A stretch of DNA of 58,752 nt from a virus: IMG/VR virus record IMGVR_UViG_3300045988_067221, positions 1 through 58,752 of that record. One strand, 5' to 3'. Position numbers and translations under genes: made by a program. The notes under the pieces were generated by a model. That model had not been told where the DNA came from. It ran no database searches and worked only from the letters and a program-made list of their open reading frames with translations. How positions within the stretch are numbered: position 1 is the first letter of the stretch; the number at the start of each line of letters is the position of its first letter. Shown piece after piece: positions 5,757 to 51,362 of the stretch.

Positions 5757-6887
5757 GTGGGAAAAGACTTGAAGGGAAAAGAGCTTGGTGTTGGGATTTC
5801 TCAGCAATCTGATAAATTGTATGTTGCAAGATTTACCGATAAGTTTGGAATTAGAAAAACCAAGCGATTCAAAAAATTGCAGGAATGCAGGCAATGGATT
5901 GCAGATGCAAGTTATATCAGCAAACATAGTGATATAGAAAATGCTTCTGACATACTTGTGGATACATGGTATGAATATTGGATCGGTATAAAGAAGCAAA
6001 CTGTAAGACCGAACACGGTTAGAAATTATTCCGAAAGGTATGAAAGAAATATTAAAGGAATTATAGGAAAAAAACTTCTTTCAGAAGTAAAACCAATTCA
6101 CTGCCAGAAAATTTTTTCTGATATGGCCGAGCAGGGATATAAGACTACTACAATCTATCAGACAAGGATAACTCTTTATAACATGCTTGAATTTGCAAAA
6201 GAGAATGATGTAATTTTAAGTAATCCATGTAAAAAATCTGTAAAGAGTGACATTGGGAAACCATCCGAAAAAAAAGTTGCTCTTACCATTGATGAGCAAA
6301 GAAAATTTTTAATGGCAGCGACAGGACAAAGTTATGAAAATCAATACAAATTTGTGCTTCAAACAGGGCTGAGAACAGGAGAGCTTGTAGGACTGAAGTG
6401 GAGTGATATTGATTTCGGAAAAAGAACGGTTACAATATCCAGGACGATGGAATACAGGTACAAGGTAGGAGAGTGGAGAGTTGGGCCGCCAAAAAGCAAG
6501 TCCGGTTATAGGACAATTCCTCTTACGGATGAAGCTATTAGAATCCTTAAAGATCAGAAAGAAAAGAATAGCAAAATCAAAGTTATCAATATTGAATGGA
6601 GAGATCAAGTTTTTCTTTCGAGGAAAGGGGAGCCAGTTAAAAACAGTACATATGACACTGCCTTATTTAAAATATGCGATAAAGCAGAGATAAGAAAATT
6701 TTGCATGCATATATTAAGGCATACATTTGCAACCAGATGTATTGAAGCTGGTATGATTCCGAAGACATTGCAAAAAATTCTTGGACATTCAAACATAGGG
6801 ATCACAATGAATTTGTATGTGGATGCTACAGAGGAAGAAAAAACAAAAGAGATGGATCTTGTCGCAGAAGCTCTTAAAGTAGTATAG
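5757..6887 (+). CDS. int: Tyrosine recombinase / phage integrase with N-terminal arm-binding (AP2-like) domain
   Basis: 376 aa. ..LQTGLRTGELVGLKWSDIDF.. (catalytic R box) and ..HILRHTFATRCIEAGMIPKTLQKILGHSNIGITMNLYV (HxxR..GH..Y). Confidence 0.9.
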   Translation: MGKDLKGKELGVGISQQSDKLYVARFTDKFGIRKTKRFKKLQECRQWIADASYISKHSDIENASDILVDTWYEYWIGIKKQTVRPNTVRNYSERYERNIKGIIGKKLLSEVKPIHCQKIFSDMAEQGYKTTTIYQTRITLYNMLEFAKENDVILSNPCKKSVKSDIGKPSEKKVALTIDEQRKFLMAATGQSYENQYKFVLQTGLRTGELVGLKWSDIDFGKRTVTISRTMEYRYKVGEWRVGPPKSKSGYRTIPLTDEAIRILKDQKEKNSKIKVINIEWRDQVFLSRKGEPVKNSTYDTALFKICDKAEIRKFCMHILRHTFATRCIEAGMIPKTLQKILGHSNIGITMNLYVDATEEEKTKEMDLVAEALKVV

Positions 6888-6892
6888 AACGA

Positions 6893-6918
6893 AAAAATTG
6901 GTACAGTAATTGGTACAC
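6893..6918 (+). repeat. Candidate attP arm-site pair, copy 1 (AAAAATTGGTACAGTAATTGGTACAC)
   Basis: 26-bp direct repeat of 7120-7145. Each copy holds two ATTGGTACA boxes. Lies immediately 3' of int. Confidence 0.6.
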
Positions 6919-7119
6919 TAGTAAAAATAAACAAAGAAAAATCCTTGAAAATCAAGGGATTTTAGGAGGAAATAGAGAAAATGAAATTAGGAATCGTTGT
7001 TAGGAGGGGATTTTTACAAAAATTTTTATAATTTTTCAAAAGCCTACAAAGCTTGAAAAATCAACGTTTTTTGGAGAATTTAACATTACATAAGTATTTA
7101 TAACTATTTATAAAAAAAT

Positions 7120-7145
7120 AAAAATTGGTACAGTAATTGGTACAC
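7120..7145 (+). repeat. Candidate attP arm-site pair, copy 2
   Basis: Identical 26-mer; the AT-rich ~200 bp between the copies could hold the crossover core. Confidence 0.6.
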
Positions 7146-7242
7146 CGAAAAGCCTTATGCAATTGAGAATATTATGAGAAGAAAACGAAAATTTTCTTCT
7201 CTTTTTTTATGCCAGAATATAAACAGAAGGAGGGAGAAAAGA

Positions 7243-11145: not shown

Positions 11146-11411
11146 TAAACAACTACAAAATCACCAGGGAAACCGGTTGTAACTATCATTTTGCCATCTG
11201 GGCGACGGTAAACAACCCCGCACCCGTCCGCATAGGTTGACCATACAAGCCAACCGGGCGGCGTGAGGTTTTCGCCTGTTTTACAGTCCCGGAACGCATA
11301 ACGCGGAGAAATCCCGCTTTTTTCTTGCTCCAGCGCGTTGTTGATCGCCTGCGATTCTGTCACAAGCTCAACGCCGTTTTTCATGTGTAAGACATAGTTA
11401 TTTTCTTTCAT
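11145..11411 (-). CDS. Hypothetical protein
   Basis: ORF track; 88 aa; GC-richer. Confidence 0.5.
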   Translation of the reverse strand: MKENNYVLHMKNGVELVTESQAINNALEQEKSGISPRYAFRDCKTGENLTPPGWLVWSTYADGCGVVYRRPDGKMIVTTGFPGDFVVV

Positions 11412-16031: not shown

Positions 16032-16104
16032 TGGGGTATCGCCAAGCGGCTAAGGCACAGGATTTTGACTCCTGCATTCGCCGGTTCAAATCCGGCTATC
16101 TCAG
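16032..16104 (+). tRNA. tRNA-Gln (anticodon UUG)
   Basis: Hand-folded cloverleaf. Acceptor tggggta/tatctca (U1-A72 as in Firmicutes tRNA-Gln). Anticodon arm cagga-ttTTGac-tcctg. T arm gccgg-ttcaaat-ccggc. Confidence 0.85.
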
Positions 16105-16651: not shown

Positions 16652-16737
16652 GCAGTGTTCCCATAATGGTATTGGAGCCGGTTGCTATCCGGTCGGGCGG
16701 AATATCCGCTTTGCAGGTTCAAGTCCTGCACACTGCG
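16652..16737 (+). tRNA. tRNA-Ser (anticodon GCU), class II
   Basis: Acceptor gcagtgt/acactgc. Anticodon arm gccgg-ttGCTat-ccggt. Long variable arm. T arm gcagg-ttcaagt-cctgc. Confidence 0.8.
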
Positions 16738-16741
16738 TTTT

Positions 16742-16833
16742 GCCAACGTACCGAAATGGTTATAACGGCGCTGTCTTGAAAACAGATGTGCTATGGAGAA
16801 CATGGCTTGTGGGTTCAAATCCTACCGTTGGCG
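16742..16833 (+). tRNA. tRNA-Ser (anticodon UGA), class II
   Basis: Acceptor gccaacg/cgttggc. Anticodon loop ctTGAaa. Long variable arm. T arm gtggg-ttcaaat-cctac. Confidence 0.75.
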
Positions 16834-25943: not shown

Positions 25944-26249
25944 ATGAAAGACTTTTTATTACAGACATACATCATAGTCCTTCCTATTTTTCTGGGCTAT
26001 ATCGTCTGGCTTCTGCAACAGCAGAAAAAGGATAGAGACGCAAACAGCAAGGGAACGATGCTTCTTTTGCGCGTGCAACTGATTGAGTATCACGATAAAT
26101 ACGTTAAGTTAGGCGAGATTCCGTCATACGCATTTGACAATTTTGTTGAGATGTATAATGCCTACCATGCTTTGGGCGGAAATGGAATGGTAACCAAAAT
26201 GTATAACGAGATACAAGAACTACATTTAAGAAGTGGAGGGAAAGAGTAA
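25944..26249 (+). CDS. Single-pass membrane protein (possible holin partner)
   Basis: N-terminal TM LLQTYIIVLPIFLGYIVWLL; directly upstream of the holin-like gene. Confidence 0.4.
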   Translation: MKDFLLQTYIIVLPIFLGYIVWLLQQQKKDRDANSKGTMLLLRVQLIEYHDKYVKLGEIPSYAFDNFVEMYNAYHALGGNGMVTKMYNEIQELHLRSGGKE

Positions 26250-26518
26250 TGGATATCACACAGATTGGAACATCTTTAGCAATCATCGTTATCTGCTATC
26301 TGATCGGATTGGGAGCTAAGACTATTCCGAGCATTAAAGATAATCTTATTCCTGTTATCGTCGGAGTGTCCGGCGGAACCCTTGGTGCAATTGGAATGTA
26401 TGTTATGCCGGAGTTTCCGGCAAGTGACATTATGACAGCAATTGCAGTTGGTATTGTGAGCGGTCTGGCCAGCACCGGAGTAAATCAGGTCTACAAACAG
26501 GTAAAGAAAGATGCTTGA
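26249..26518 (+). CDS. Holin (Hol44 / phi-LC3-like, multi-TM)
   Basis: 89 aa; ..LIPVIVGVSGGTLGAIG....AIAVGIVSGLASTGVNQVYKQVKK. Confidence 0.6.
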   Translation: MDITQIGTSLAIIVICYLIGLGAKTIPSIKDNLIPVIVGVSGGTLGAIGMYVMPEFPASDIMTAIAVGIVSGLASTGVNQVYKQVKKDA

Positions 26519-29359: not shown

Positions 29360-30073
29360 ATGAGAATTAACGTACATGCCGGACATAACCCGGCAGGAAA
29401 GGTAGCTTGCGGAGCAGTAGGACTTATCAATGAGTCAACCGAGGCAAGAAGAGTAAAGGATGAGGTAATCAGTCAGTTCCGGCAGCTGGGACATACGGTC
29501 TATGACTGTACCGTGGATAATGGCACGGGACAGAAAGATGTATTACGGAAAATCGTGCAGAAATGCAGACTGCATGAAGTCGATCTTGATGTATCCATCC
29601 ACTTCAATTCCGGTGCGAATGATAAATCTGGCAATGGTAAGACAACCGGAGTCGAGGTACTGGTCTACTCTGCGTCCAGCAAAGCAAAAGTCTATGCTGA
29701 GAAAGTCTGTGCTGCTATTGCAAGATTAGGCTTCCGGAATCGTGGTGTAAAGGTAAATTCCAGTCTTTATGTGCTGAAAAATACCAAGGCTCCTGCAATG
29801 CTGGTTGAGTGCTGTTTCGTGGACGATAAGGACGATGTGAAACTTTATAATTACTATGAGATGGCATCAGCTATCGTTTACGGAATCACCGGCGAGAAGG
29901 TCTCTGCGATATCTGAAACCGAAAAGGCAGATGCAGGTGAGGAAACTACCACTGGCAATCCAAAAGCTCTTTATCGGGTGCAGGTGGGCGCATACGGGGT
30001 AAAGGGAAATGCGCAGGCAATGGCAGGTAAACTGAAAAATGCCGGTTTTGATGCGGCAATCGTGCAGGCATAA
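29360..30073 (+). CDS. N-acetylmuramoyl-L-alanine amidase (Amidase_3) with C-terminal SPOR domain: endolysin
   Basis: MRINVHAGHNP...DLDVSIHFNSG...VLKNTKAPAMLVECCFVD; C-terminal ..YRVQVGAYGVKGNAQAMAGKLKNAGFDAAIV. Confidence 0.85.
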   Translation: MRINVHAGHNPAGKVACGAVGLINESTEARRVKDEVISQFRQLGHTVYDCTVDNGTGQKDVLRKIVQKCRLHEVDLDVSIHFNSGANDKSGNGKTTGVEVLVYSASSKAKVYAEKVCAAIARLGFRNRGVKVNSSLYVLKNTKAPAMLVECCFVDDKDDVKLYNYYEMASAIVYGITGEKVSAISETEKADAGEETTTGNPKALYRVQVGAYGVKGNAQAMAGKLKNAGFDAAIVQA

Positions 30074-30199: not shown

Positions 30200-33100
30200 A
30201 TGGCAGCAACCACGATTGATGATCTTCAGATCAAGATTGAAGCGGATGCGAAAACTGCTTCTGATAAGCTGGATGCACTTGCTCAAAGCATGGTGAAACT
30301 GGCATCAAGCCTAAGCATCAACGTTGGCAAGATGTCTGGTGTTGCTATTGGACTTAATAGCATTACCAGAGCTTCACAGAATCTCAATTCCAGAAATATA
30401 ACAACACTGGCAACTGCTATGGGGAAAGTAGCAGGTGTGGATTCTGCTCAAATTTCCAGAGTAGCTGGTTCTATGACGCAGCTAAAAAACAGCGTTTCTG
30501 GCGGTTTTAACACCGATATGACCGGAATAGTGAATGTAGCTAATTCACTGTCAAAACTGGGCGGTACAAAGGCTACACAAGGTGCGCAGAACCTTGTTCT
30601 CATAAAAGATCAGCTTGCTCAATTTGTGCAAGGCATGAACAGCGTAGGAACATTTACGTTTGACCCTACTGGGCTGACCAACACAATTAAAGCTATTGCG
30701 AAGCTGGGCGGAAAGACAGCAACGCAGGCAATGGCAAATCTTCCGAGCATTTCTGCTCAGTTACAGAATTTTGTCCGGCAAATGAACCAGATCGGCTCTA
30801 TGTCGTTTGACAACAAGAATTTAACCGACCTTGTAACGTCCATAGGCAGGCTAGGAAGTGTTGCAAGTGGGCGAGCGGTAAATAATATACCTTTGCTTGC
30901 AAACAACCTTAAATACCTGTTTGAGACGCTCTCAAAAGCACCATACATCAGCCAGAACATTATCCAGATGACCACGGCACTGGCTAATCTGGCACGTACA
31001 GGAGCATCTAGTGGTACTGCGGCAAGATCACTTGGGACAAGTCTTTTCTCATTCTCGAAATCTGCCGGTAACGCAAGAAAGAGTGCATTTTCTTTGGCAG
31101 GTGCAATCGGTAAGTTTTACGCAACTTACTGGATGGTCATTAGAGGACTTGGACTTTTTCGTGATGCTATTGACATCTCATCCGATTTAACAGAGGTTGA
31201 GAACGTTGTCCGTACCACGTTCGGAAATATGGAGTACAAGGTTAATGACTTTGTGCAGAACTCCATTCAGCAGTTCGGTATGTCTGAGCTTTCCGTTAAG
31301 CAGTATGCCAGTACGTTCCAGGCTATGGGAACTGCTATGGATGTCGGCGGCAAACAGATCGAGAAAGCAAACAGCTTTTTAAGTGGTGCTACGGATGGAT
31401 ATGTCGGATTGTCAGATTCTATGTCCGATGTGTCTTTGAATCTTACTAAACTGACGGCGGATATGGCATCTTTCTACGACAAAGATCAGGCAGATGTTGC
31501 CAAAGACCTGCAATCTGTATTCACCGGAATGGTAGTTCCGCTACGTAAATATGGACTTGATCTGACGCAGGCTACTCTGAAAGAGTGGGCAATGAAGAAC
31601 GGTATGGATGCTGATATTAAGTCCATGACGCAGGCAGAAAAGGCAATGCTGCGGTATCAGTACGTCCTAGCAAATACCACGGCAGCGCAAGGGGACTTCT
31701 CCAGGACAGCCGATACATGGGCGAACCAAGTACGAATTTTGAAACAGAACTTCCAGCAGTTAGGCGGCATTATTGGTGGTGCGCTGATTAACGCATTCAA
31801 ACCGTTTTTACGGACTCTGAATTTTGTTATGCAGAAGGTAATCAGCTTTGCCACAACCGTAACAAATGCCCTTGGTGCAATCTTCGGTTGGAAATTTGAA
31901 GTGTCCGGCGGTGGTGTGGTTGACGACTGGTCAGATGCGGCAAGTTCAGCTGATGATCTGGCAGACAGTACCGGTAAAGCAGCTGACAATACAAAGAAGA
32001 TGAAGAACAATCTTCATGCACTGGATGAGTTGAATATTAACAATGGTTATGATAACGGAACAGGTTCCGGCGGTTCTGGTTCCGGTGCAGGTGGCGCAGG
32101 TGGCGGTGCTGGCTCTGGTGGTCTGGTTAAGACAGACACTATCTGGAAAGATTTTGAAAGTAATATCAAAGACCTGTATCAGTTGGGCGAGTATATCCGT
32201 GATGCACTTATCGGTGCAATGGAAAGTATTGACTGGGATAGTGTATATGAGAAAGCAAGAAACTTTGGTACTGGTCTGGCAGAGTTTCTTAATGGACTTT
32301 TTGCTGGATCTAACGGAATTACTCTGTTTGGAGAAGTTGGAAAAACTATTGCGAGCGCATTAAATACGGTAGTTTATGCGGCGCTGTCATTTGGCAAAGA
32401 ATTTAATTTTGAACAGTTTGGATACAACATAGCTGATGGAATCAATAACTTTTTTGCTACTTTTGACTTTGCAGCATTGGCAGAAACCTTGAATACTTGG
32501 GCAAATGGAATACTAAAAGTTGCAAGCGAATCTATTACAAATATAGATTGGAAAAAAGTATTTGAAGGTGTTGGAAACGTAGTTTTTAATCTGGATGCAT
32601 CTGCTATTGTTGAAGTTGCTTTACTCTCATTGACTTGGAAAAACAAAACGCAAATTCTTAAAACCGCAGGCACGACTTTGCTAAATATTTTTACTGGAGG
32701 TATTACACTTACAAAGGTATTAGTCAGCCTTAAAAAAATAAGTTTTGCTCTTCCTGGGACACCTGCATTTGATGTTGTCGCTACTAGCATATTAGATACT
32801 ATTGGAGAATGCATCAAAAACTTAATTCCAGATTGGGCAAACAGAGCTTTAAGCAGAATTGGAGCTGGCTTGGTTGCTGGAGCTGTTGGTGGATCATGGT
32901 TTCCTGGAGTAGGCACAATTGCAGGAGCAATTATTGGAGCAATTACTGGTGCGATATCTGCAATAGAAATTGACGGGCAAGGTATCCTCAAAATTATTTT
33001 TGACAAAATTTTTAATTTTGATTTGACATCTTCGATGTTCGATTCTGCAAGAGAAAATTTTGCAAAAGGTGGTATAAATATTGTTCTTGGTATCATTGAC

Positions 33101-34453
33101 GGAATAGCAGGAGTGCTTGATTTTGTTGTTGAGCCTATAGCAGATTTATTCACATGCGTATGGGATGCTTTATGTAATGTATTTGGCATTCATAGCCCAG
33201 CAGAGACAATGAAGCCAATAGGAAGATATATTGTTCTCGGAATAATTGAAGGCTTAAGCAATACAATAGATGAATTTATTGGAACATTGGAAAATTTTGC
33301 AAGCAGATCAATAGCTTATCTGAACGAAAAAGTTCCAGAAATTATAAGCAGCATATCAATTTTTTTCAGAGAAGATTTGCCCCAAAATATTAAAGAAGCA
33401 TTTGATAATGTTATGAAAAAATTTTCTGAATGGAAGAACAATGCTGTTCTATTTGTAACTGAAAAAGTTCCAGAAATAGCAAACGGAATTATAGATGCAT
33501 TCAAAAATCTTAAAGATAATTTGTTTGACATTGGGAAAAATGCTATAAATGGTCTTTGGGATGGCATGAAAAATACCTGGGATACAGTCAAAACAGGAAT
33601 TTCGGATTTTGTTTCTGGAATAACAACCGTCTTTACGGATGGTCTTGATATCCATAGCCCAAGCCGCGTCATGGCTGAAATAGGCGGATATACGATAGCT
33701 GGATTTAACAACGGAATTATCGAAAATATCCAGACAACAATGAACTCTATCCATGAGTGGATATCTAACATTGAAGCAGTATTAGCTCCTGAGGTATGGG
33801 CAAATATTTTTAATAATATAATCCGTGGTTTCCAATATAAATGGTTGGAGTTCCGAACATTTTGGAATAGCAGCTTGAACGCATGGTGGAATGCAAATGT
33901 TACTCCGTGGTTTGCAGTCGCAAAATGGACTGCACTTGGAAATAACATGAAGAACGGATTGTATTATGGATTTAAGGGAATTGTGCAGATGATAGGATCT
34001 GTTATGAATGGTATGATAGATGTATTTAATGCCGGTCTTTCTCGAATCAAGAATGCAATGAACAGTCTTATAAGCGATTATAATTCTGTTGCTGGTGAGC
34101 TTGGTGTTTCAAAACTTTCTCATGTGAATGTTGCTACAATCTCAAAAATCAACATTCCAAAATATGAAGTTGGTGGATTCCCTGAGGACGGTCTGTTTTT
34201 TGCGAACCATAATGAAATGGTTGGTCAGTTTTCTAACGGAAAAACAGCGGTTGCAAACAATGAGCAGATTGTTGCAGGAATCCGCGAAGGAGTAAAAGCA
34301 GCAGTTTCAGAGATCCTTGCTCCGTATCTGTCAGATATTGCGGACAGTAATAGAGAGATTGCTGAAAAAGATGCATCTTTCACGGTGGACGGTAGAGAGC
34401 TTGTAAAAGCAATCAACGAAAGAGAATCAAGGAATGGCTTCAGTTTCACGTAA
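30200..34453 (+). CDS. Tail tape measure protein
   Basis: 1417 aa; repetitive helical, Gly-rich and hydrophobic segments; position after the chaperones. Confidence 0.9.
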   Translation: MAATTIDDLQIKIEADAKTASDKLDALAQSMVKLASSLSINVGKMSGVAIGLNSITRASQNLNSRNITTLATAMGKVAGVDSAQISRVAGSMTQLKNSVSGGFNTDMTGIVNVANSLSKLGGTKATQGAQNLVLIKDQLAQFVQGMNSVGTFTFDPTGLTNTIKAIAKLGGKTATQAMANLPSISAQLQNFVRQMNQIGSMSFDNKNLTDLVTSIGRLGSVASGRAVNNIPLLANNLKYLFETLSKAPYISQNIIQMTTALANLARTGASSGTAARSLGTSLFSFSKSAGNARKSAFSLAGAIGKFYATYWMVIRGLGLFRDAIDISSDLTEVENVVRTTFGNMEYKVNDFVQNSIQQFGMSELSVKQYASTFQAMGTAMDVGGKQIEKANSFLSGATDGYVGLSDSMSDVSLNLTKLTADMASFYDKDQADVAKDLQSVFTGMVVPLRKYGLDLTQATLKEWAMKNGMDADIKSMTQAEKAMLRYQYVLANTTAAQGDFSRTADTWANQVRILKQNFQQLGGIIGGALINAFKPFLRTLNFVMQKVISFATTVTNALGAIFGWKFEVSGGGVVDDWSDAASSADDLADSTGKAADNTKKMKNNLHALDELNINNGYDNGTGSGGSGSGAGGAGGGAGSGGLVKTDTIWKDFESNIKDLYQLGEYIRDALIGAMESIDWDSVYEKARNFGTGLAEFLNGLFAGSNGITLFGEVGKTIASALNTVVYAALSFGKEFNFEQFGYNIADGINNFFATFDFAALAETLNTWANGILKVASESITNIDWKKVFEGVGNVVFNLDASAIVEVALLSLTWKNKTQILKTAGTTLLNIFTGGITLTKVLVSLKKISFALPGTPAFDVVATSILDTIGECIKNLIPDWANRALSRIGAGLVAGAVGGSWFPGVGTIAGAIIGAITGAISAIEIDGQGILKIIFDKIFNFDLTSSMFDSARENFAKGGINIVLGIIDGIAGVLDFVVEPIADLFTCVWDALCNVFGIHSPAETMKPIGRYIVLGIIEGLSNTIDEFIGTLENFASRSIAYLNEKVPEIISSISIFFREDLPQNIKEAFDNVMKKFSEWKNNAVLFVTEKVPEIANGIIDAFKNLKDNLFDIGKNAINGLWDGMKNTWDTVKTGISDFVSGITTVFTDGLDIHSPSRVMAEIGGYTIAGFNNGIIENIQTTMNSIHEWISNIEAVLAPEVWANIFNNIIRGFQYKWLEFRTFWNSSLNAWWNANVTPWFAVAKWTALGNNMKNGLYYGFKGIVQMIGSVMNGMIDVFNAGLSRIKNAMNSLISDYNSVAGELGVSKLSHVNVATISKINIPKYEVGGFPEDGLFFANHNEMVGQFSNGKTAVANNEQIVAGIREGVKAAVSEILAPYLSDIADSNREIAEKDASFTVDGRELVKAINERESRNGFSFT

Positions 34454-34515: not shown

Positions 34516-34545
34516 CTGGATATATTTTTATTGGAGGAAAAGTTA

Positions 34546-35172
34546 ATGAAAGAAAACAACGAAACCAAAGTATGTAAGTATTGCCAGACAGAAATCTCCA
34601 AAAAAGCAAAGGTGTGCCCTAATTGCAAGCGCAAGCAGGGAGGTATAGGATGTTTAGGAGTAATTTTAATAGTTGCATTTGCACTTATTTTTATTGATAC
34701 ATTTGCTTCTTCAATGAGTAAAGACAAAAATCCTGAAAAAGTTGGAGAAGTGGGATCTGAATTATCAGAAATTGGTACGCAATCAATTGACAATACTTTT
34801 AATGTTGGCGATGTAGTTGAAACAGATAATTTTAGAATTACTTATGAGTCCGCAGGGGAGTATACAAACGGAAATGAATTTTTGCAGCCAAAAGATGGAT
34901 ATGTATACTTTCAGTTTACATTTAAGTTTGAAAATATTTCGGATACAGACCAAGCAATTTCAACTATGATTGATTGGGAATGTTATGCAGACAATTCAAA
35001 AGTAGATCAAACATGGATTGTTGATGATAATGGACTTGATGGAAAACTGTCCTCTGGGAGAGAATCAGAAGGATCTGTATATTTTGAAGTTCCAGAAGAT
35101 GCCGAGAGCGTTGAGCTTGAATACGATATTAACTTTTGGCAGAGCGATAAAATTATATTTGTTGGAAAGTGA
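34546..35172 (+). CDS. Zinc-ribbon / TM / DUF4352-like extracytoplasmic protein (moron)
   Basis: CKYCQTEI..CPNCK, TM GCLGVILIVAFALIFI, beta-rich C-terminal domain; ATG at 34546 after RBS ggagga. Confidence 0.65.
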   Translation: MKENNETKVCKYCQTEISKKAKVCPNCKRKQGGIGCLGVILIVAFALIFIDTFASSMSKDKNPEKVGEVGSELSEIGTQSIDNTFNVGDVVETDNFRITYESAGEYTNGNEFLQPKDGYVYFQFTFKFENISDTDQAISTMIDWECYADNSKVDQTWIVDDNGLDGKLSSGRESEGSVYFEVPEDAESVELEYDINFWQSDKIIFVGK

Positions 35173-35179
35173 CAATTTA

Positions 35180-35210
35180 AGGGGCAGATTTCTCTGCCCT
35201 TTATTTTTTT
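35180..35210 (+). terminator. Terminator after the moron
   Basis: aggggcaga-tttc-tctgccct followed by ttattttttt. Confidence 0.7.
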
Positions 35211-35263
35211 ACTTGTTTCGTTGCTCAATATAGTTCCATAGGGCGGTTTGCGCCGCCCTAGTT

Positions 35264-35533
35264 GGTGAACTAACTGAGAAGTTGGAAGTAGATAAGATCA
35301 TTATGAATGCAGTTCTTGTAACCTTTGTTAATGGAGTAGGTACTGTGACCTATGATGGTAAAGGATACTCAAAAGCAATATGTACAGCAAATTTTATGGC
35401 TGATGCTGCTTATCCATCTGGATATCATACTCAGCTTGGAGTAAATGCTGCAAATGGAATAATCAATTTTTACACTAGCTCCACAGCTAATGTAAAAACA
35501 TATGTATCCTATATTCTAGGTTTGAAAAAATAA
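35264..35533 (+). other. Silent (start-less) alternative C-terminal cassette of the tail-fibre tip gene
   Basis: Reads GELTEKLEVDKIIMNAVLVTF...VKTYVSYILGLKK, homologous to the C-terminal 87 aa of 35548-36156. No RBS or ATG; begins inside the inverted repeat. Confidence 0.75.
35265..35281 (+). repeat. Inverted repeat, left copy (GTGAACTAACTGAGAAG)
   Basis: Perfect 17-mer; its reverse complement lies at 35797-35813. Similarity continues inward (17 of the next 22 nt). Confidence 0.9.
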
Positions 35534-35547
35534 ATTTTCTCAAATAA

Positions 35548-36156
35548 TTATTTCCTTAATCCGATAAAATAACTTACATAGAGGTTCCCGTTAATCGCTG
35601 CGTTTGTGTATAATTCTATTCTCCCATCTTTATAATTTGATGGTACAACAGTCATCCCGTATCGCTGTTTTCCAACCATCATAGCAATACATATAGGTTC
35701 TTTCTCATATTCGGGGTAATGATTATATGGAAGATATCCAATGCCACTGTTAAAATTTATTAAGGATGTACCAATTATGATTTTATCTGCATCCATCTTC
35801 TCAGTTAGTTCACGAGCTTCTGAAAGAATTTTAGTTGCCTTTACGTGGCTTTCATCCCATGCACCGGCTGGGTGGGCAGTGGTGAATTTCCATACTTTGT
35901 TATTGCGAATAGTATAATCGCCAACAGCATAATCAACTTCTGGATTAAATTCATCCCCCATGTCATCGTATGCCTGATTAACAGCAGCATTGGTTTCATT
36001 CATGTCCTTTGCAGAGAAAGTGCTTCCAACAGATTGATAATCAGTAGCATCTTCCAGAGATTTTGTTCCGTTGCTGTTTTCGGTAACATTATACTGCCGT
36101 TTTCCGTTCATAGATTCTGCTAAAATATCATCTGTAAAATTTGTTTTTAATGCCAT
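35548..36156 (-). CDS. Tail-fibre tip / receptor-binding protein (currently expressed cassette)
   Basis: 202 aa; RBS aaggag; last gene of the tail-tip string; carries the right inverted repeat in frame (..RELTEK|MDADKIII..). Confidence 0.6.
   Translation of the reverse strand: MALKTNFTDDILAESMNGKRQYNVTENSNGTKSLEDATDYQSVGSTFSAKDMNETNAAVNQAYDDMGDEFNPEVDYAVGDYTIRNNKVWKFTTAHPAGAWDESHVKATKILSEARELTEKMDADKIIIGTSLINFNSGIGYLPYNHYPEYEKEPICIAMMVGKQRYGMTVVPSNYKDGRIELYTNAAINGNLYVSYFIGLRK
35797..35813 (-). repeat. Inverted repeat, right copy
   Basis: cttctcagttagttcac is the reverse complement of the 35265-35281 sequence. Confidence 0.9.
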
Positions 36157-36563
36157 TATACTTGAACTCCTTTCATATTTCCAAATCTAAAAGCCAATCT
36201 TATAAGTCCGGCTTTTTGTCTGTCTAATAAATTGTACATGTTTAGTATTGCTGACTCGATTCTATTCAGTTCATCGTATGTAATAAATACACCATTTGGT
36301 ACGAATGTCTGTCTGTCACCAAAATCTTGAGTAAAAATATTTTGATTTATTTTCTCAAGATTTTCTTCAAATTTGTTTATTTCGCTTGCGTAGATATAAT
36401 CTACATAGGTTTTTTCTGGGCCCATGTCTTGTGTGTCAAAAGACATATAAAGAGTTTCCGCTTTATCTTTCAGAAAATCCAGGTTTCCTTTTATGCGGTT
36501 GTAATCAGATATATTAAATCTGTCACTGACCGTCCAGTTCGTTTTTGGTTGGATCCACGCCAT
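36156..36563 (-). CDS. Tail-fibre/collar protein
   Basis: MAWIQPKTNWTVSDRFNISDYNRIKGNLDFL.. resembles the N-termini of Firmicutes phage fibre proteins. Confidence 0.5.
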   Translation of the reverse strand: MAWIQPKTNWTVSDRFNISDYNRIKGNLDFLKDKAETLYMSFDTQDMGPEKTYVDYIYASEINKFEENLEKINQNIFTQDFGDRQTFVPNGVFITYDELNRIESAILNMYNLLDRQKAGLIRLAFRFGNMKGVQV

Positions 36564-36564
36564 A

Positions 36565-38799
36565 TTACAACACCGCCTTCCTTGCTTTTAATGATCCGCT
36601 CCATGTACCAGTAAACTTTAATTCGTTCTGATAAGCACGCACCATTGTATTTTCTCTGTTTTTTAGCTCTAAAAAGAAAAGATCGTTTGCATCAGTCCTC
36701 GGATCTCCGTTCCATGATATTTCATATTCCACATCACCCAAATAGTATGTAGACAACCATTTTTCAATGTCCACAGCCATTTCTAATGAGCTTACCAGAG
36801 GATTTTTCCATGTTTTTTCGGTTCCTGTCTGATTGTGAATTTTTGAATATGTTTGCGTATCTTGTAAATATTCTTGCCCACTTACAGAAATCCTCACTTT
36901 TTCTCCTACGTTTCCGACAATATTTACTTTTACAAAATAGCTGCTGCTATCAATGATTGACACTGTTGTATTAGCAGATTCCGTGGATACTGAGAATCCG
37001 TAAGAAGCTTTTGCAAGATATACTGTATACTCCTGTGTTGCTGATTCTAAAAGCACCTCTTCCGATGAAAGCTCTTTTATGGCTTCTAGATTTTCTTTAT
37101 AAAGCGTTCTTTCTACGGATATAGATTTTATTCTTTCTTGCCGTGTTTCTCTTGGAGAAGTAGAAAGATTAAAGTCTCTGGATAAAACGTAATCCGTTGA
37201 ATCTCCAAATATAATATTGTCTATCGTTACTCTGGCATTTGGATGCCCTTTCGTAAACTCAATTTCTACTTTGTCGAATCGGTCTAATTGCCCAAGATAT
37301 CCTTGCTGTAATTCTGGATTTGACACGGTGTATTCTAATACAGTTGTTCCCAAGTAAGAAGTTTTTACTGAGTATTCTGCCGGAGCAACATTCCTAAAAT
37401 AAATCATCATTCCGTAGCAGATATATCCTGATTCTAATGTGATTGTTATTTTCGGATTATTTTGGAAATCTCCGTTCTCATTAGCCAATTCGCTGCTTAC
37501 ATATCCTATATTTTCGATGTATTCGCCATTTTCTGGTAGAAATTTTAAAGTCCCGTTCACAGAAGAAAAATCGTTACTTCCCATTGCATATGCTTCTTTT
37601 TGACTGTAACTAAGTATGTTTTGAGACCTGCTAAACTCGGTTTCTCCGTTCGTTTCTGCTGTCATATCAGGGACAAAAGATGATTTGATGTTAATTCGCC
37701 CTTTCCGATCCACGCTTAAAACACAACGTCCGGCATTAGATATAATCTGTAATGCTTCAGAATGCTTTACTGCCGGAACAGGATTGCATACGATTACGCT
37801 TTTCAAATATTCGTCTATATAGTATTCCTCATCCTTCATTCCGGCATCTGTGAAAACATCGACAGCCAAGTCATATAAAGATATTCCGCTGTTCCGATAT
37901 AAACCATTGTAATACATGGTATTTAACTTCCAGTAAAACACATCAACCATGGTAAATTCTGCTTGTACATCGTTTGCGCTCCATGACTTAAGGTATGTAG
38001 TAATTTCTGGAACCCATTCAATATCACCTTTTCCAGTTACATCGTATCCAAACGTGACTTTCATTTCCTGCCCTTGTTCGAGATATGCAATAGCTGATTC
38101 AGAATTTTCAGGACTGTAATATAGGTTCTGGTTATCCACAACAATGGTCATGTCTTGGCTTGGTACAGATTCACAAATAGGAGATACAAAATCTTTATAA
38201 GAAAAAGATTTGACCTCGTTATTTGAGAAAGTATTGGAAATTCCGCAGGTAAACTGTAAAATCCGCATTCGTCCCTGCCCATTAACCATGGCCAGCGGTG
38301 TTATCCGCAGGAACGTCACCGCATCGAATGTGTCCTCAGTAACAAATACGTTTCCTGAGTTTTCATAGGTCTTCGTTCCATTATCTGACTTGATTGTAAA
38401 AGATGTTGGGTAATATTCTCCAAAGTTAATAGTGAGTCCTTTAATATCAGCAAAGTTTCCAACAAAAGAGATATATATTGATTCCAAAAGTCCAGAAGTT
38501 ACCATTCCGTTGTTATAAAAATCATAATCAGAATATTCTTCCGGCAAAAAATACATTGTCCCATTAACTTTAGAAAAATCTTGCTCCATAGTTGCATATA
38601 TTTTCTTTGCGGTATTGTCCTTGAAAGGAGCGGTATTGTTTGCAAAATAAGCAAAATCATTATTGCTATCATCCGCAATTATATTTTCTGTAGCAATTGA
38701 ACTGACAATTCCAATTCTGGCAGATATATACCCTCGGTTCCTGAATGGCTTCTTCATTGCGTCTTTGTATTCTTTACTTACATTTTGCATGTTAATCAC
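36565..38799 (-). CDS. Large tail-tip/baseplate structural protein (Tal-like)
   Basis: 744 aa; position between the Dit-position gene and the fibres. GTG start at 38799 or ATG at 38790. Confidence 0.55.
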   Translation of the reverse strand: MINMQNVSKEYKDAMKKPFRNRGYISARIGIVSSIATENIIADDSNNDFAYFANNTAPFKDNTAKKIYATMEQDFSKVNGTMYFLPEEYSDYDFYNNGMVTSGLLESIYISFVGNFADIKGLTINFGEYYPTSFTIKSDNGTKTYENSGNVFVTEDTFDAVTFLRITPLAMVNGQGRMRILQFTCGISNTFSNNEVKSFSYKDFVSPICESVPSQDMTIVVDNQNLYYSPENSESAIAYLEQGQEMKVTFGYDVTGKGDIEWVPEITTYLKSWSANDVQAEFTMVDVFYWKLNTMYYNGLYRNSGISLYDLAVDVFTDAGMKDEEYYIDEYLKSVIVCNPVPAVKHSEALQIISNAGRCVLSVDRKGRINIKSSFVPDMTAETNGETEFSRSQNILSYSQKEAYAMGSNDFSSVNGTLKFLPENGEYIENIGYVSSELANENGDFQNNPKITITLESGYICYGMMIYFRNVAPAEYSVKTSYLGTTVLEYTVSNPELQQGYLGQLDRFDKVEIEFTKGHPNARVTIDNIIFGDSTDYVLSRDFNLSTSPRETRQERIKSISVERTLYKENLEAIKELSSEEVLLESATQEYTVYLAKASYGFSVSTESANTTVSIIDSSSYFVKVNIVGNVGEKVRISVSGQEYLQDTQTYSKIHNQTGTEKTWKNPLVSSLEMAVDIEKWLSTYYLGDVEYEISWNGDPRTDANDLFFLELKNRENTMVRAYQNELKFTGTWSGSLKARKAVL

Positions 38800-39209
38800 T
38801 CCAGGCCTGCATCAATAAGATTAAATTTACAATTCTCGTACTTTGTAACAATGTGAGAATCTTGGTCTGCAAATAATGGAACACCGGTCCTGTCTCCAGG
38901 ATACATTGTAACGGTGATCGGTTTTCCTGTCCGGTAGTCCTCAAAAGTTACCGGCACATAAAATGGTTCTACTGCCTTTAACATTCTTTGCCATGTTTCT
39001 GCATCCAGCATTGCCCATTCCAGATTGTTCAGTTTAAAAATGTCTCTTCCTACTCGCTGTCCAATAACTGCGTTATTTGCGTTTCGTCCGGCATTTACCG
39101 TTGTGCTGATGATATACGAAAATCCAACCCTTGGACACGGGAAGTCTACTCCATTTACGTTCAAAAACGATGACATTCCTCCGCCTGATCGCATAGTTCT
39201 TATTGCCAT
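38796..39209 (-). CDS. Distal tail protein-position gene (first gene of the tail-tip module)
   Basis: 137 aa; RBS ggaggtg; overlaps the next gene by 4 nt. Confidence 0.45.
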   Translation of the reverse strand: MAIRTMRSGGGMSSFLNVNGVDFPCPRVGFSYIISTTVNAGRNANNAVIGQRVGRDIFKLNNLEWAMLDAETWQRMLKAVEPFYVPVTFEDYRTGKPITVTMYPGDRTGVPLFADQDSHIVTKYENCKFNLIDAGLE

Positions 39210-39305
39210 GTAGGCACCTCCGTTCTTGGCAGAAGTACCATCGGGCAGTCTGCCAGTATCTTTTTCTGGTTAGCGGATACCTCTTGCGGTATCCGGCTTA
39301 TATCC

Positions 39306-39773
39306 TTACTGGATTTCACATTTAAGCGGCAAATATGATACGAATCTGCTATTCATCCACGGTTTTTCCGGTGTTCCAAATTCTTCACTGTCTTCTGATG
39401 TCCAGATAAAATTACCAACAACATACACGGCTTCACCTTCAGCCGGCCTGTTCTTCGCAAACCCACTTTTCCTTTCCAATTCATATTTTCCTATGCAGAT
39501 TAAATTTCTCTTAGCCAATTCAAGATAATGTGAGAATGTCCCATCGCAAATACACCTGTCTCCACACCATCCGTCAAAATCTGTTTCCGGATCATACTTT
39601 ATCTTCACTTCAAACTTTTCTCTTGTATCTGGTCGAGTAAATTCAAGACTCCATAAATTTTCACCGCATTTTTCCTTGTAAAATAAATAGTCAAGCACCT
39701 TGTCTGTGCCAAACTCAAAGCAGTTTTTCTTCAAGTCCACTTCTTTCTTCACAAAATCCAATGATTTCCCCAT
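39306..39773 (-). CDS. Hypothetical protein
   Basis: ORF 39306-39779 (TTG); first ATG at 39773. Confidence 0.5.
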   Translation of the reverse strand: MGKSLDFVKKEVDLKKNCFEFGTDKVLDYLFYKEKCGENLWSLEFTRPDTREKFEVKIKYDPETDFDGWCGDRCICDGTFSHYLELAKRNLICIGKYELERKSGFAKNRPAEGEAVYVVGNFIWTSEDSEEFGTPEKPWMNSRFVSYLPLKCEIQ

Positions 39774-39789
39774 AATCAATCATACCTCA

Positions 39790-40632
39790 CTATTCTATCA
39801 ATTTCGCTTTTAAATTCCGGCGGATATAGCCGGACATAAAGTGGGACAGGCTCTTTTCTATGCCATCCCGGTAGTTCGTTTGCATGTACATATCAATTAG
39901 CGGAATATACTGGTCTAGCGTCCACACATCATCCATGATTCCATATTCGTCCTCATCCTGATGCAGGTAGTTGTATACGATATTGCTAATAGCCGGTCGT
40001 GTGAGTGGCTTATGCGGCTTGCCTTGCGTTCTGGCATATTCGCTTACAAAGTATTCAGCTATGTCCTTCAACTCGGCTCTATAGCCGCTATCTGGAGATT
40101 CTCCTTCTTCCGTCATTGCCTCGTCAATAGCTTTTGTGACCGTAGGAGATAACGTACCACCTTCAGATGTGGGAGAGACCTCTTTTTCCGCAGAAAAAGA
40201 GCATACTCCCATACTTTTATTTTCTTGTTTATTTTCTTTTTTAGTATTTTGTATGTTAGTATTTAATTGTGCGGGCATATCCAACATTGGTTCATCCTGT
40301 GTTGGATATTCCAACTTAGGTGAATCCGACTTAGGCTCTACAGGCTTTTGATAGACGGTATAAACCGTTCCACCAAGTGTACCGTTTTTATTTCTTTCCC
40401 GCTCTCTGGTAACATATCCACTGTTTATAAGCTCTGTCAAAGAACTTCTAACTTTGTCTTTTCCTTCTTTGACAATTTTTGTAAGTCCTTCCACTGTATA
40501 ATTCCAGTTATCCGGAAGACTCAACATCGTTATGAGTAATCCTTTAGCAGATAACGATATTTCCTTATTTTTGAGAATTTCATTTGGAATTGTCGTGAAA
40601 TTCTGTGTCAGTTTTACTACTACTTTTGCCAT
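39790..40632 (-). CDS. Winged-helix replication-initiator/replisome-organiser-like protein
   Basis: ..FTTIPNEILKNKEISLSAKGLLITMLSLPDNWNYTVEGLTKIV.EGKDKVRSSLTELINSGYV. Confidence 0.5.
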   Translation of the reverse strand: MAKVVVKLTQNFTTIPNEILKNKEISLSAKGLLITMLSLPDNWNYTVEGLTKIVKEGKDKVRSSLTELINSGYVTRERERNKNGTLGGTVYTVYQKPVEPKSDSPKLEYPTQDEPMLDMPAQLNTNIQNTKKENKQENKSMGVCSFSAEKEVSPTSEGGTLSPTVTKAIDEAMTEEGESPDSGYRAELKDIAEYFVSEYARTQGKPHKPLTRPAISNIVYNYLHQDEDEYGIMDDVWTLDQYIPLIDMYMQTNYRDGIEKSLSHFMSGYIRRNLKAKLIE

Positions 40633-40665
40633 GTTCTACCTCCTACAAATAGACTCCTACATTTA

Positions 40666-40729
40666 TGAAAAACAACTGGCAGGCGGTGTAGGATTTCCGC
40701 TTTTCGTGTTGCAATCACTAGCCAGTTGT
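40666..40729 (-). terminator. Long-loop hairpin plus T-run after the Rha gene
   Basis: Minus strand: acaactggc ... gccagttgt followed by ttttt. Confidence 0.45.
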
Positions 40730-40731
40730 AA

Positions 40732-40774
40732 AAGCAGCCGGAGGAATCGAACCTCCATAAACCACTGACTGCTT
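40732..40774 (-). ncRNA. tRNA-minihelix-like element (acceptor-like stem stacked on a canonical T arm)
   Basis: Minus strand: aagcagtc-agtggtttat-ggagg-TTCGATT-cctcc-ggctgctt. Confidence 0.4.
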
Positions 40775-40783
40775 ACATGTGTT

Positions 40784-41431
40784 TTATACGGCCTGTAACA
40801 AGGCATTGTTTTCATTCAAGAATTTCTTAATTTGGTCATATCCCCAACCACACCCGATGAGTCCGCTGACAAGCATTTCTTTTGACTGAACTATTCTTAA
40901 ATCCTCTTCGCTGAAAAAGTCTCTCAAATTTGCTTTATCGTCTACTCCATACTCTTCCTGGAGCTGTTTTGCATTTTTACCAAATACGGCTTTGTAGATT
41001 ACATTTGTATATGTGGAGTAGGCATGACCATGCATCCGATCATTTTCTTCTGATTGTTTCAAAGTATTGGTAAGAGCCTGCCGGACTGCAATGCCTTTTT
41101 CTCTTTCTCGGATTTTTCCGATAAGAGCTTTTTCCATTGCGTTAAACTGGCGAATATATGCTTCTTTGAACTGCATAGCCTTTTCACCGGTATACCCCAT
41201 TGCCAATAACGTAAAGCCGTCTCTGGTCATAATAAACATTGATTGATTATGCCCTTGTTCATTCGCATATTTCGACTGCACGAAATTGTGCAATCGAAAA
41301 TCCTCACTGCATTTCAGCTCACGTATGTCCTGCAAAACCCTACGATGTTCCTTTCCGAACGTTTCTGCCACATCAAGACTCGTTACTGTCGCGACTTCTT
41401 CTTTCTGGATTTTTGAGATCTCAACTAACAT
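40784..41431 (-). CDS. Rha-family phage regulatory protein
   Basis: ..VTSLDVAETFGKEHRRVLQDIREL.........NQSMFIMTRDGFTLLAMGYTGEKAMQFKEAYIRQFNAME. Confidence 0.75.
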   Translation of the reverse strand: MLVEISKIQKEEVATVTSLDVAETFGKEHRRVLQDIRELKCSEDFRLHNFVQSKYANEQGHNQSMFIMTRDGFTLLAMGYTGEKAMQFKEAYIRQFNAMEKALIGKIREREKGIAVRQALTNTLKQSEENDRMHGHAYSTYTNVIYKAVFGKNAKQLQEEYGVDDKANLRDFFSEEDLRIVQSKEMLVSGLIGCGWGYDQIKKFLNENNALLQAV

Positions 41432-41474
41432 ATACCATCCTCCTGTGATATTTATTGTTCGTTTTCAGACAAAC

Positions 41475-41520
41475 AAAAAACGCCCACCAGACACAGTATC
41501 TCTACCATGTCCAGTGAGCG
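41475..41520 (-). terminator. Strong intrinsic terminator closing leader B
   Basis: Minus strand: cgctcactggac pairs with gtctggtgggcg (12 bp including G-U pairs), followed by tttttt. Confidence 0.8.
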
Positions 41521-41625
41521 TGATTCTCAAAATGTTTGCCGTCCTTGCTCGGTTCGTCCTATCCTTTGCGCCCCGTTCTCCCCTCAACGGCAAGCCGGGC
41601 GGAGCTGGCGGATTCGGTTAAATTT
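41521..41625 (-). promoter_or_regulatory. Leader element B (homologous to leader A at 14128-14236)
   Basis: Minus strand: ttaaccgaatcc..ccgttgaggggaga..caaaggataggacgaaccgagcaaggacggcaaac..gagaatcacgctc. Confidence 0.6.
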
Positions 41626-41631
41626 TCTTAT

Positions 41632-41660
41632 ATTATAACATTTTTTCTTCTTTATATCAA
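41632..41660 (-). promoter_or_regulatory. Promoter (TTGATA-17-TATAAT) driving leader B and the Rha gene
   Basis: Minus strand: ttgata (41660-41655), tataat (41637-41632). Confidence 0.6.
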
Positions 41661-50327: not shown

Positions 50328-51362
50328 GTGATTATGGCAAATACACAGGTAGCAGAAAAGAAAGCATTTACGACCTCTTTAAGCGTATGGTCAAATGAAA
50401 TTACAGGCTTGATCGCAAGGGATTACGAGACTTGTGGAGTGCAATTTGATGATTATGCAAAAAAATGCGCTATGGAAGCGATGACCAGTATTTACACACT
50501 TGTAAAAAATGACAGTAAAACGGATATTAACAATATTGACAAGAGCAATCTGCGGCAGATTGTTGAAAACTGCGCCAGCCTTAAACTGAACGCTGGTTCC
50601 AATCCGCGAGAGTGTTTCTTCCAGCTTAGAAGTGTGAAAGTTGGGAACGACTGGATGAAAGTCGTTGAAATGGGTATTGAGGGTGATGGATATGATGCGT
50701 TACTTTCCAATTTCGGTAAAAACGTAAAGCAGGTATACCCGTTCTGGGCTGTTAAGGAAGGTGATGTATATGTGTCACCGAAACATCGTGGATTGGAAGT
50801 TGCCCCTCCGGAGTGGGAGGAGAAGGGCCTGTCAGACAAAGTGGTTCGGGTAGTATATCCGGTAAAGTTGACAGACGGAACCGTAACATACCTGATTGCA
50901 GAGCGTGATGGGGTAAAGGTAAATCTTCTGGCTCATGTAAAGCAGAATATGATGAACGCCACATTTGGCATTTGCGCTGACAGATTCAAGGCAACGGAAA
51001 AGCAGAAAGAGGAAATCAAGGCGAAGAAAACGGAGGTTCTGGATGCTATGAGAGCTTGCAAGACCGTGGATGAAATGTTGAAATGCGAGCTTGCCAGACC
51101 GTTTATCAGCGGTGCGTGGCTGGACACACCTGAAAGTATGATTCAGCGCAAGATGCGTAACAATGCAATCAGAAAATTTCCGAAGAATTACGACCCGATG
51201 GCCCGGCAGGCGCAGCTTGAAATGGACGAGGTGTACCAGGCATCGAAGGCGGAGATCGAGGAGAATGCAAATTCTATGGATTTTGAACCGGAAGAAACTG
51301 CTGGAACAGTGACCGAACCGGACGGGCAGCAGGCAATGCCGGAGTTCATGCAGGAGGGATAA
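50328..51362 (+). CDS. RecT-like single-strand annealing protein candidate
   Basis: Position between the SMC-like ATPase and the nuclease/SSB genes; ..ENCASLKLNAGSNPRECFFQLRS.. Start is GTG 50328 or ATG 50334. Confidence 0.4.
   Translation: MIMANTQVAEKKAFTTSLSVWSNEITGLIARDYETCGVQFDDYAKKCAMEAMTSIYTLVKNDSKTDINNIDKSNLRQIVENCASLKLNAGSNPRECFFQLRSVKVGNDWMKVVEMGIEGDGYDALLSNFGKNVKQVYPFWAVKEGDVYVSPKHRGLEVAPPEWEEKGLSDKVVRVVYPVKLTDGTVTYLIAERDGVKVNLLAHVKQNMMNATFGICADRFKATEKQKEEIKAKKTEVLDAMRACKTVDEMLKCELARPFISGAWLDTPESMIQRKMRNNAIRKFPKNYDPMARQAQLEMDEVYQASKAEIEENANSMDFEPEETAGTVTEPDGQQAMPEFMQEG

Follow-up and report, generated by a model that had tools for sequence, protein, structure and literature searches.

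A phage whose receptor-binding proteins are phase-variable can hedge its bets among hosts or among variants of a receptor, and, to our knowledge, nearly all known examples carry their own invertase beside the switch. What, then, would turn over such a segment where no invertase stands beside it? This question is raised by a 549-bp element in the IMG/VR virus record IMGVR_UViG_3300045988_067221, the whole 58,752-nucleotide stretch of which was analysed and is called the window hereafter. A perfect 17-bp inverted repeat in this window encloses two alternative C-terminal cassettes of one gene, and a preliminary description, made from the sequence alone, took the element for an invertible segment (inverton) that switches the tip of a tail fibre. 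Our reading, to which we give a probability of roughly 0.7, is that the element is a genuine switch, which inverts the C-terminal cassette in a probable receptor-binding tail protein, and that phages sharing the backbone of the window flip it, on evolutionary time scales at the least.

Two cassettes between inverted sites

The 17-mer GTGAACTAACTGAGAAG is present exactly twice in the 58,752 bp, at 35265–35281 on the plus strand and at 35797–35813 on the minus strand, and no additional copy with up to three mismatches was found in the window (chance expectation 0.17), so the repeat is as perfect as first described. The segment between the arms measures 515 bp; the 549 bp originally said to be bracketed is the correct span, which includes both repeat copies. 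A repeat finder stretches the arms to 45 nt with 84% complementarity, because the first codons of both cassettes are homologous, whereas outside the repeat three of five bases match, in keeping with the earlier remark that similarity ends at its outer edge. The conserved site is 16–17 nt long and asymmetric, without dyad symmetry by inspection.

The variable gene is a 202-aa minus-strand open reading frame (ORF) at 35548–36156, and the right arm, i.e., the active-side crossover site, lies in frame within it, encoding residues 115–120, (R)ELTEK. Upstream of this site, residues 1–114 form the constant N-terminal part (35814–36156, minus strand), and downstream of it follows the expressed cassette A (35548–35796, minus strand; 82 codons and a stop, MDADKIIIG...YFIGLRK). 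Counting the site, the constant part measures 120 codons and not the approximately 115 given at first. The left arm, i.e., the silent-side crossover site, heads the silent cassette B (35282–35533, plus strand; 83 codons and a stop), and its core is kept though it is non-coding here. This arm opens a plus-strand frame, GELTEK followed by LEVDKIIMN...YILGLKK, which has stops just upstream, lacks a credible start or ribosome-binding site and ends at 35533, as had been claimed. The two cassettes lie tail-to-tail, with a 14-nt spacer (35534–35547) between the convergent stop codons, and are 38% identical (BLASTP E = 1e-15), which agrees with their description as homologous and diverged. A virtual inversion at the repeat yields an in-frame protein of 203 aa, bearing out the predicted fusion of the silent cassette to the constant codons.

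In the mechanism that we propose, two inverted copies of the short asymmetric site would recombine, and the 515 bp between them would be turned over. Each site has GTGAACTAA as its conserved arm, a presumed crossover region that lies within [C/A]TGAGAA, and a cassette-side arm without conservation. Inversion would then swap the 82-residue domain A for the paralogous 83-residue domain B, in frame behind the 120 constant residues, and the junction of the flipped copy would read ...GAAGCTCGTGAACTAACTGAGAAG joined to TTGGAAGTAGATAAG. Such a swap should change what the virion binds and, presumably, the host range.

Conservation and rearrangement in related phages

More than 100 homologues of the 202-aa protein are 96–99% identical over the first ~120 residues, which end in ...KILSEARELTE(K/N); beyond this junction their C-termini are unrelated, and their total length ranges from 146 to 260 aa. 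Loci with the constant part were fetched (4 viral and 21 metagenome loci, plus others by exact protein), and in almost every one the 17-mer, with up to three mismatches, stands at the constant/variable junction. Nearly all related loci also have a reverse-complement site 320–970 bp downstream of this junction, heading a second, silent cassette. Thus, in about 35 related gut-phage loci (family 1, the family of the window), an inverted pair of the 16-nt core GTGAACTAA[C/A]TGAGAA is found at the equivalent place, around unrelated cassettes. More than two cassettes or sites were found neither in the window nor in any family-1 locus.

The silent-side core is always preceded by AGGG[C/A]GGTTTGCGCCGCCCT[A/G]GTTG, which includes a GC-rich hairpin, and nothing is conserved on the cassette-side flank of the core. 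In the window, this hairpin (AGGGCGG-TTTGCG-CCGCCCT, 35241–35260) is separated from the outer edge of the silent-side site by a 4-nt spacer, AGTT (35261–35264). It is kept in all family-1 loci, and a T-run is absent 3′ of it on both strands; its role may be to terminate transcription that reads through from the tail operon, or to serve the switch as accessory DNA.

Clustering of 188 cassette sequences at 60% identity gave 51 cassette types, 16 of which were seen silent, and nine of these 16 were also expressed in other genomes. The A/B pair itself recurs on two other contigs, L002 and L003. Decay of the plus-strand cassette, or loss of the repeat, in relatives had been named in advance as a result that would speak against a switch; the repeat is perfect in both of these contigs, and homologues of cassette B elsewhere are intact.

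Evidence for flipping comes from two reciprocal pairs, in which otherwise 96–98% identical phages differ by an exact inversion between the repeats. In the first pair, L005 expresses the cassette FEDAAKK... and holds NLTSVIGF... silent, whereas L031–L040 express NLTSVIGF... and hold LEDAAKK... silent. BLASTN alignment of this pair showed collinear flanks (~97% and ~93%) on either side of an inverted 687-bp segment (97%), with the alignments overlapping by 19 bp, which is the repeat. Both orientations are common: P0033 is in 56 blocks of the collection and P0079 on 14 contigs. In the second pair (L016/L023 versus L075/L076, with the cassettes LTWQLAGE... and LQNISFGF...), the inverted 687–690 bp are 99.6% identical and the flanks are again collinear. 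The phages of both pairs align to the window at 95–98% to 35772–35798 and from 35283–35286, and differ from it only between the repeats. Position 10 of the site (C/A) stays with the flank and position 17 moves with the cassette, suggesting, on few polymorphisms, that the exchange falls within TGAGAA (positions 11–16). The site pair at the same junction in about 35 loci, together with these two exact inversions, supports the original view of the element as a cassette-swapping inverton, and phages with the backbone of the window appear to invert the segment at these sites, over evolutionary time at the least.

The same cassettes also link the window to shufflons that carry a recombinase. A relative of cassette B (87% aa and 92% nt identity) is found in a second gut-phage family (L041–L050); the two B copies are homologous from ACTAA, within the site, to the stop codon. 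In this second family, three inversions at ~40-bp sites (four sites; e.g., L041 1127–3611 vs. L042) distinguish contigs of 99% identity, and one of the invertible segments contains the gene of a 331-aa armless Xer-like tyrosine recombinase (1916–2911 in L042), whose orientation varies among these contigs. Cassettes homologous to both A and B of the window are members of this shufflon. Its sites read TAAAAATTTYGnn[G/A][A/C]ACT[A/G][A/G]nTGAGAA[G/C], and the core ACTAA[N]TGAGAAG is common to these and to the sites of the window. The variable gene of L041–L050 follows the genes of the tape measure protein, Dit (phrog_33) and a minor tail protein (phrog_538), and precedes those of a holin and an endolysin; this is the usual position of a receptor-binding protein.

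In other phage families, cassette A is likewise either silent or fused to other constant parts: it was found silent beside a holin gene (P0134), and in a third family it is fused to a 42-residue constant part, with a Xer-like gene 1.4 kb upstream and the sites AACTATTTGAGAA. A DNA-pattern scan for the head of B detected one further silent copy in viral contigs, beside a Xer-like recombinase, and in genome contigs only a chance match in a response-regulator gene. The ratio of nonsynonymous to synonymous substitution of A and B between families (omega 0.4–2.4) is based on too few substitutions to be interpreted. As a separate observation, a giant protein of 3966 aa (P0138) contains 18 repeats resembling residues 25–71 of cassette B, which suggests that the cassette fold may be a widespread small domain of the surface or adhesin type.

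The catalyst and the competing explanations

The window is a 100% match to Logan contig L001, and in the 58,817-bp assembly ERZ27260240 k119_152553 its end is joined to its start. Because this contig connects both ends, the window is a complete, circularly permuted phage genome of ~58.7 kb; the phage, which comes from human gut metagenomes, is temperate and its genome circular. Sequencing runs in which it is present include ERR1018247, SRR33884579 and ERR3153753. The sole site-specific recombinase in this genome, according to Pfam hits and our own scans of the genes, is a lambda-type tyrosine integrase (Int; 5757–6887, plus strand), 29 kb from the inverton, which is a candidate catalyst. Its N-terminal ~70 residues precede a SAM-like domain and leave room for a putative arm-binding domain, and a Tn916-Xis-like gene (5283–5684) lies upstream. 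A tblastn search with Hin in all six frames gave nothing below E = 2, and no resolvase Pfam match was found on any gene, either in our own scans or among precomputed hits for identical and near-identical contigs. The preliminary description was therefore right in listing this integrase as the only recombinase and in finding no serine invertase.

Downstream of the integrase gene, a 23-nt direct repeat, AAAATTGGTACAGTAATTGGTACAC (6896–6918 and 7123–7147), resembles the arm sites of an integrase. A 10-bp inverted repeat, GAGAAGAAAA-CGAAAA-TTTTCTTCTC (7171–7201), is preceded by ATGAGAAG and followed by a T-run, and could be the core of the phage attachment site (attP) or a terminator.

With at least 51 cassette types, a 16-nt site, documented flipping and no enzyme in cis, this widespread human-gut phage family makes the question of the flipping enzyme testable, with a short list of candidates, namely the integrase of the phage, an enzyme of the host, or the Xer-like invertase of another prophage. 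We regard the element as a shufflon-like tyrosine switch that lost, or never had, its own enzyme. A shufflon-type tyrosine recombinase is the likeliest catalyst because the site layout, the cassettes and the core are shared with loci that bear such a recombinase, and, since the window is without a shufflon-type recombinase gene, its source would have to be the host or another element. Taken together, a Xer-like recombinase of the Rci/Rin kind, acting in trans from the host or a co-resident prophage, stands in our estimate somewhat short of an even chance; the integrase of the phage itself seems unlikely, and what remains falls to homology-driven or unrecognised mechanisms. Orphan invertons that are served by a trans-acting invertase are known from the B. 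fragilis Mpi regulon. Prophages with the same cassettes and the ACTAA[N]TGAGAA core are conceivable sources of the enzyme, with the shared core serving as a lead only.

More tentatively, and with the odds leaning against it, the Xer-like invertase of the host or of a co-resident prophage from another family might flip the orphan segment in trans, with the conserved site acting as a common docking point at which unrelated gut phages would switch their receptor-binding cassettes as well as trade them. If so, the shared site would explain how receptor-binding modules move between unrelated phages, and, with an enzyme acting in trans, the range of hosts open to a phage would depend on the other mobile elements in the lysogen. 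The catalogue of site and cassettes could in addition serve for prediction or engineering of the host range of gut phages that have not been cultured.

Several observations weigh against the inversion switch, its presumed function or its presumed enzyme. The B-expressed state of the A/B pair of the window was not found: seven contigs carry the identical A-protein, and the three places displayed are all A-expressed. Eight predicted chimeras of the constant part with B are absent from the protein collection, as judged by an exact look-up, which is weak in that an exact match is needed. A homology search with cassette B for the same fusion gave short ORFs only, an absence that means little because a control search with cassette A also failed: the ~85-aa query returned only proteins of similar length and missed the 202-aa proteins (P0001) that hold a 100% identical stretch. 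A HMMER search of cluster representatives with B was uninformative because clusters at 50% identity hide the cassettes. The orientation differences are differences between assemblies of different samples, which means that flipping occurred, with its rate and its programming beyond the reach of such data. As to function, Pfam, PHROGs, NCBIfam and PDB searches gave no functional name to the 202-aa protein or to the 135-, 744- and 137-aa proteins encoded upstream, the sole match among the four being a sub-threshold CBM_5_12 at residues 70–102, and an AlphaFold2 model of the 202-aa protein was unusable, with a mean predicted local distance difference test score of 49. It is from gene position that the product of the variable gene is taken for a distal-tail, likely receptor-binding protein, and the labels "tail-fibre tip" and "host range" in the preliminary description have the same origin. 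As to the enzyme, no recombinase able to flip the segment was identified in the genome, which has neither a Xer-like invertase nor a homologue of the 331-aa enzyme of L042. Moreover, the left part TAAAAATTTYG that is conserved in the L041–L050 sites is missing from the sites of the window, so that cross-recognition of the latter is not assured.

The candidate nearest at hand is the phage's own integrase, which might moonlight by taking the 16-nt core as a secondary core-type site without arm sites. The genome is complete and encodes no other site-specific recombinase, and the integrase is 99% identical in two inverton-bearing contigs (IMGVR ..._058782 and ..._076693), one of which is a member of a reciprocal pair. 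In addition, the attP-like region (6888–7220) holds ATGAGAAG, an 8-mer of the inverton core, beside the 10-bp inverted repeat at 7171–7201. However, an 8-mer match in ~500 nt is only marginally unexpected, the inverton site is otherwise unlike the attP-like arm repeats AAAATTGGTACAGTAATTGGTACAC (6896, 7123), and GTGAACTAA occurs nowhere else in the window. The enzyme of the related shufflons is of the armless Xer-like type and bears no significant BLASTP likeness to Int (E = 1.1). Int was also missed in the 56-kb relative L004, which has the site pair, a weak point in that the scan needs near-exact peptides. On balance we consider a moonlighting integrase unlikely, with something over one chance in five at best. 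About as unlikely, in our view, is that the A/B copy is a frozen relic without an enzyme, the orientations in its relatives having arisen by rare homologous or microhomology recombination (through RecT, RecA or replication template switching at the 17–19-bp repeats) or by exchange of the segment between co-infecting phages. The single orientation of the A/B pair fits this explanation, as do the RecT and SSB encoded by the phage (the former from a faint match on the counterpart of 50328–51362), and some relatives indeed have a decayed silent cassette (26 codons in L007/L017) or a degenerate repeat (GTGAACTAACTGATGAT in L009). The inverted segments (99.6%) are moreover more alike than their flanks (96–97%) and stand behind two constant-region lineages, which fits horizontal transfer of the segment. 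Nevertheless, the repeat of the window is perfect and both of its cassettes are intact, and a dedicated tyrosine recombinase is encoded in related loci that have the same core. Across ~16 unrelated silent cassette types, whose copies of the 16-nt core are non-coding, this core does not vary and never lengthens, whereas lengthening would be expected if selection acted on the length of homology. Seventeen base pairs also fall below the usual length for efficient exchange of the RecA or RecT type. Homologous or microhomology recombination thus fits poorly with so sharply bounded a core, although it may account for rare events.

A more radical alternative leaves no switch at all: the plus-strand ORF 35282–35533 would be an independent 83-aa gene with a TTG start, e.g., for a tail-fibre chaperone, and the repeat would be incidental. 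Gene callers do list an 83-aa protein in many assemblies (P0121–P0131). However, the spacing of a ribosome-binding site is lacking, as the TTG abuts the GAGAAG of the site; homology to the C-terminal domain encoded by the neighbouring gene spans all of B; and, in relatives, cassettes from the silent position occur fused and expressed elsewhere. We consider an independent gene very improbable. A diversity-generating retroelement was dropped as a candidate, as no gene gave a reverse-transcriptase match and the relation of the cassettes is that of diverged paralogues, not that of a template and a variable repeat.

Known switches and the genomic surroundings

This kind of inversion switch is already known, and its orphan state has been glimpsed before; the novelty lies in how large the family is, in its defined site, in the reciprocal pairs and in the connection, via common cassettes and a common core, to shufflons of other phages that bear a recombinase. 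In the R64 shufflon, a tyrosine recombinase, Rci, inverts C-terminal segments of PilV, a plasmid pilus adhesin, with four segments, seven sites and rci adjacent. The sfx sites of Rci are asymmetric, with a conserved spacer, one conserved arm and a variable other arm, and favour inversion over deletion. The site of the window is similarly built, with conservation of one arm and of the crossover region and variation in the other arm, whereas its switch is located in a phage tail protein gene rather than in that of a plasmid pilus adhesin.

Among phages, the Rin shufflon of Bifidobacterium prophages (Mavrich et al. 2018, PMC6109161) has a receptor-binding protein with a constant N-terminus and swappable C-terminal cassettes of ~95–100 aa, an asymmetric 11-bp rix site ahead of each cassette, and an armless Xer-like tyrosine recombinase. 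The window resembles Rin in its constant N-terminus, its C-terminal cassettes and its short asymmetric sites, and an armless Xer-like enzyme accompanies the L041–L050 homologues. It differs in having two cassettes only, in lacking such a recombinase gene, be it adjoining or elsewhere, in its site, GTGAACTAA[C/A]TGAGAA, which is unrelated to TTCCCTAACCC, and in the host phylum. The closest published parallel is a second locus of the same study, in the tRNA-Met bifidoprophages 689b-1 and Bb423phi2, where ~500 bp are inverted at an 8-bp repeat without a flanking recombinase and a trans invertase was proposed (PMC6109161). As in the window, no recombinase flanks the segment. However, that locus rests on one genome pair and on genes of unknown function, whereas the family of the window offers a 16–17-bp site, ~35 loci, 51 cassette types, two reciprocal pairs and the shufflon link. 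The tail-fibre shufflon of BV01-like Phocaeicola phages, for which all configurations were seen in reads (preprint PMC13596623), has three cassettes, a flanking recombinase, the motif TGGGAGAACT and a Bacteroidota host, and differs from the window in these respects. With the tyrosine shufflons in general (Rci, Rin, BV01-like), the window shares a short asymmetric site at the cassette heads and in the constant gene, seen in ~35 loci. Unlike them, it has two cassettes rather than three or more and no dedicated armless recombinase beside or inside the segment, such as L041–L050 possess. Alternative arrangements with breakpoints exactly at the sites were observed for relatives with the same backbone and not for its own A/B pair.

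The likeness to the Mu G segment that was first proposed holds for the logic of the switch only, since the sites and the probable enzyme class resemble those of the tyrosine-recombinase shufflons (Rci, Rin) and not those of Gin. The sites gix, cix and hix are 26-bp imperfect palindromes with a central 2-bp crossover, and the site of the window is not a dyad of this kind. In Mu G/Gin, P1 C/Cin, e14 P/Pin and p15B Min, a constant N-terminal fibre part is combined with alternative, inverted C-termini that give different host ranges (PMC6109161). The window likewise fuses a constant N-terminal part in frame to alternative C-terminal parts, but its segment holds two C-terminal cassettes only, without U/U′ assembly genes, and neither an adjacent serine recombinase nor an enhancer-bearing invertase gene is present. 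Phage tail-fibre genes also figure in systematic surveys as targets of programmed inversions that alter genes (PMC9881135).

The inverton lies among structural genes, next to a gene for a DUF4352 accessory protein (34531–35172) and that of a tape-measure-like protein (1417 aa, 30200–34453), on which the tail-tip operon converges. The head and packaging genes include those of an SPP1-type portal, a HK97-like capsid protein (Pfam Phage_cap_E), a terminase and a scaffold. The minus-strand block runs from the variable gene through genes for 135-, 744-, 137- and 157-aa proteins to a HTH_36 replication-initiator-like gene, Rha and a cI-like repressor. The 135-, 744- and 137-aa genes (36156–39209, minus strand), which belong to PHROG families without known function, are presumed to form a distal-tail module in the same operon; the order 137-741-135-variable gene is kept in relatives, where this trio always accompanies the variable gene. 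Searches of INPHARED phages gave zero nucleotide matches and only remote protein matches, to unannotated records, and a scan of the genome-contig collection found no prophage copy or relative of the variable gene.

A 6.7-kb module reaching from Rha to the variable gene and the inverton (35041–41647 in the window), and containing Rha, the replication-initiator-like gene, the 157-, 137-, 744- and 135-aa genes, the variable gene and the inverton, is reversed in L002 as compared with L075 and the window, the tape measure and the cI-like repressor being the reference for its orientation. Its flanks in L002 are formed by 111-nt inverted repeats of 93% complementarity (4331–4441 and 11151–11261; L075, 3756–3866), of which the window has a single arm (41535–41647). 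No third copy of the inverton site that would explain the odd orientation of the tail-tip module was found; the rearrangement uses this other, 111-nt repeat. The module is thus a second, larger inversion polymorphism nested around the small inverton.

The 5′ part of the Rha leader is itself a 111-nt repeat arm of this larger module inversion. Upstream of Rha (41440–41660, minus strand), a promoter-like TTGATA-17-TATAAT is followed by a GC-rich leader and a strong hairpin with a U-run; the minimum free energy of the leader has a z-score of −4.3 relative to shuffles, and Rfam gave only a chance microRNA match. This leader may be regulatory (an attenuator) for the Rha/tail-tip operon. Between Rha and the replication-initiator-like gene, Rfam detects an int-alpA small RNA motif (40660–40728, minus strand; 51.7 bits, gathering score 35.8).

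Relatives differ in the accessory genes that stand between the tape measure and the inverton (34531–35172 in the window, 1725–4327 in L002, 4140–4715 in L031): these encode a zinc-ribbon and DUF4352 protein, a protein of 191 aa, or one of 306 aa with Bro-N/ORF6C genes after it, and L002 retains a 132-bp 3′ remnant of the DUF4352 gene there. This slot looks like a moron-type variable region. The lysis genes are unusual in position, as an Amidase_3 and SPOR endolysin gene (29360–30073) stands directly upstream of the tape-measure-like gene and a holin_5_2 gene (26249–26518) among the head–tail connector genes. Three tRNA genes (Rfam; plus strand, 16032–16104, 16652–16737 and 16742–16833) are located upstream of the packaging genes.

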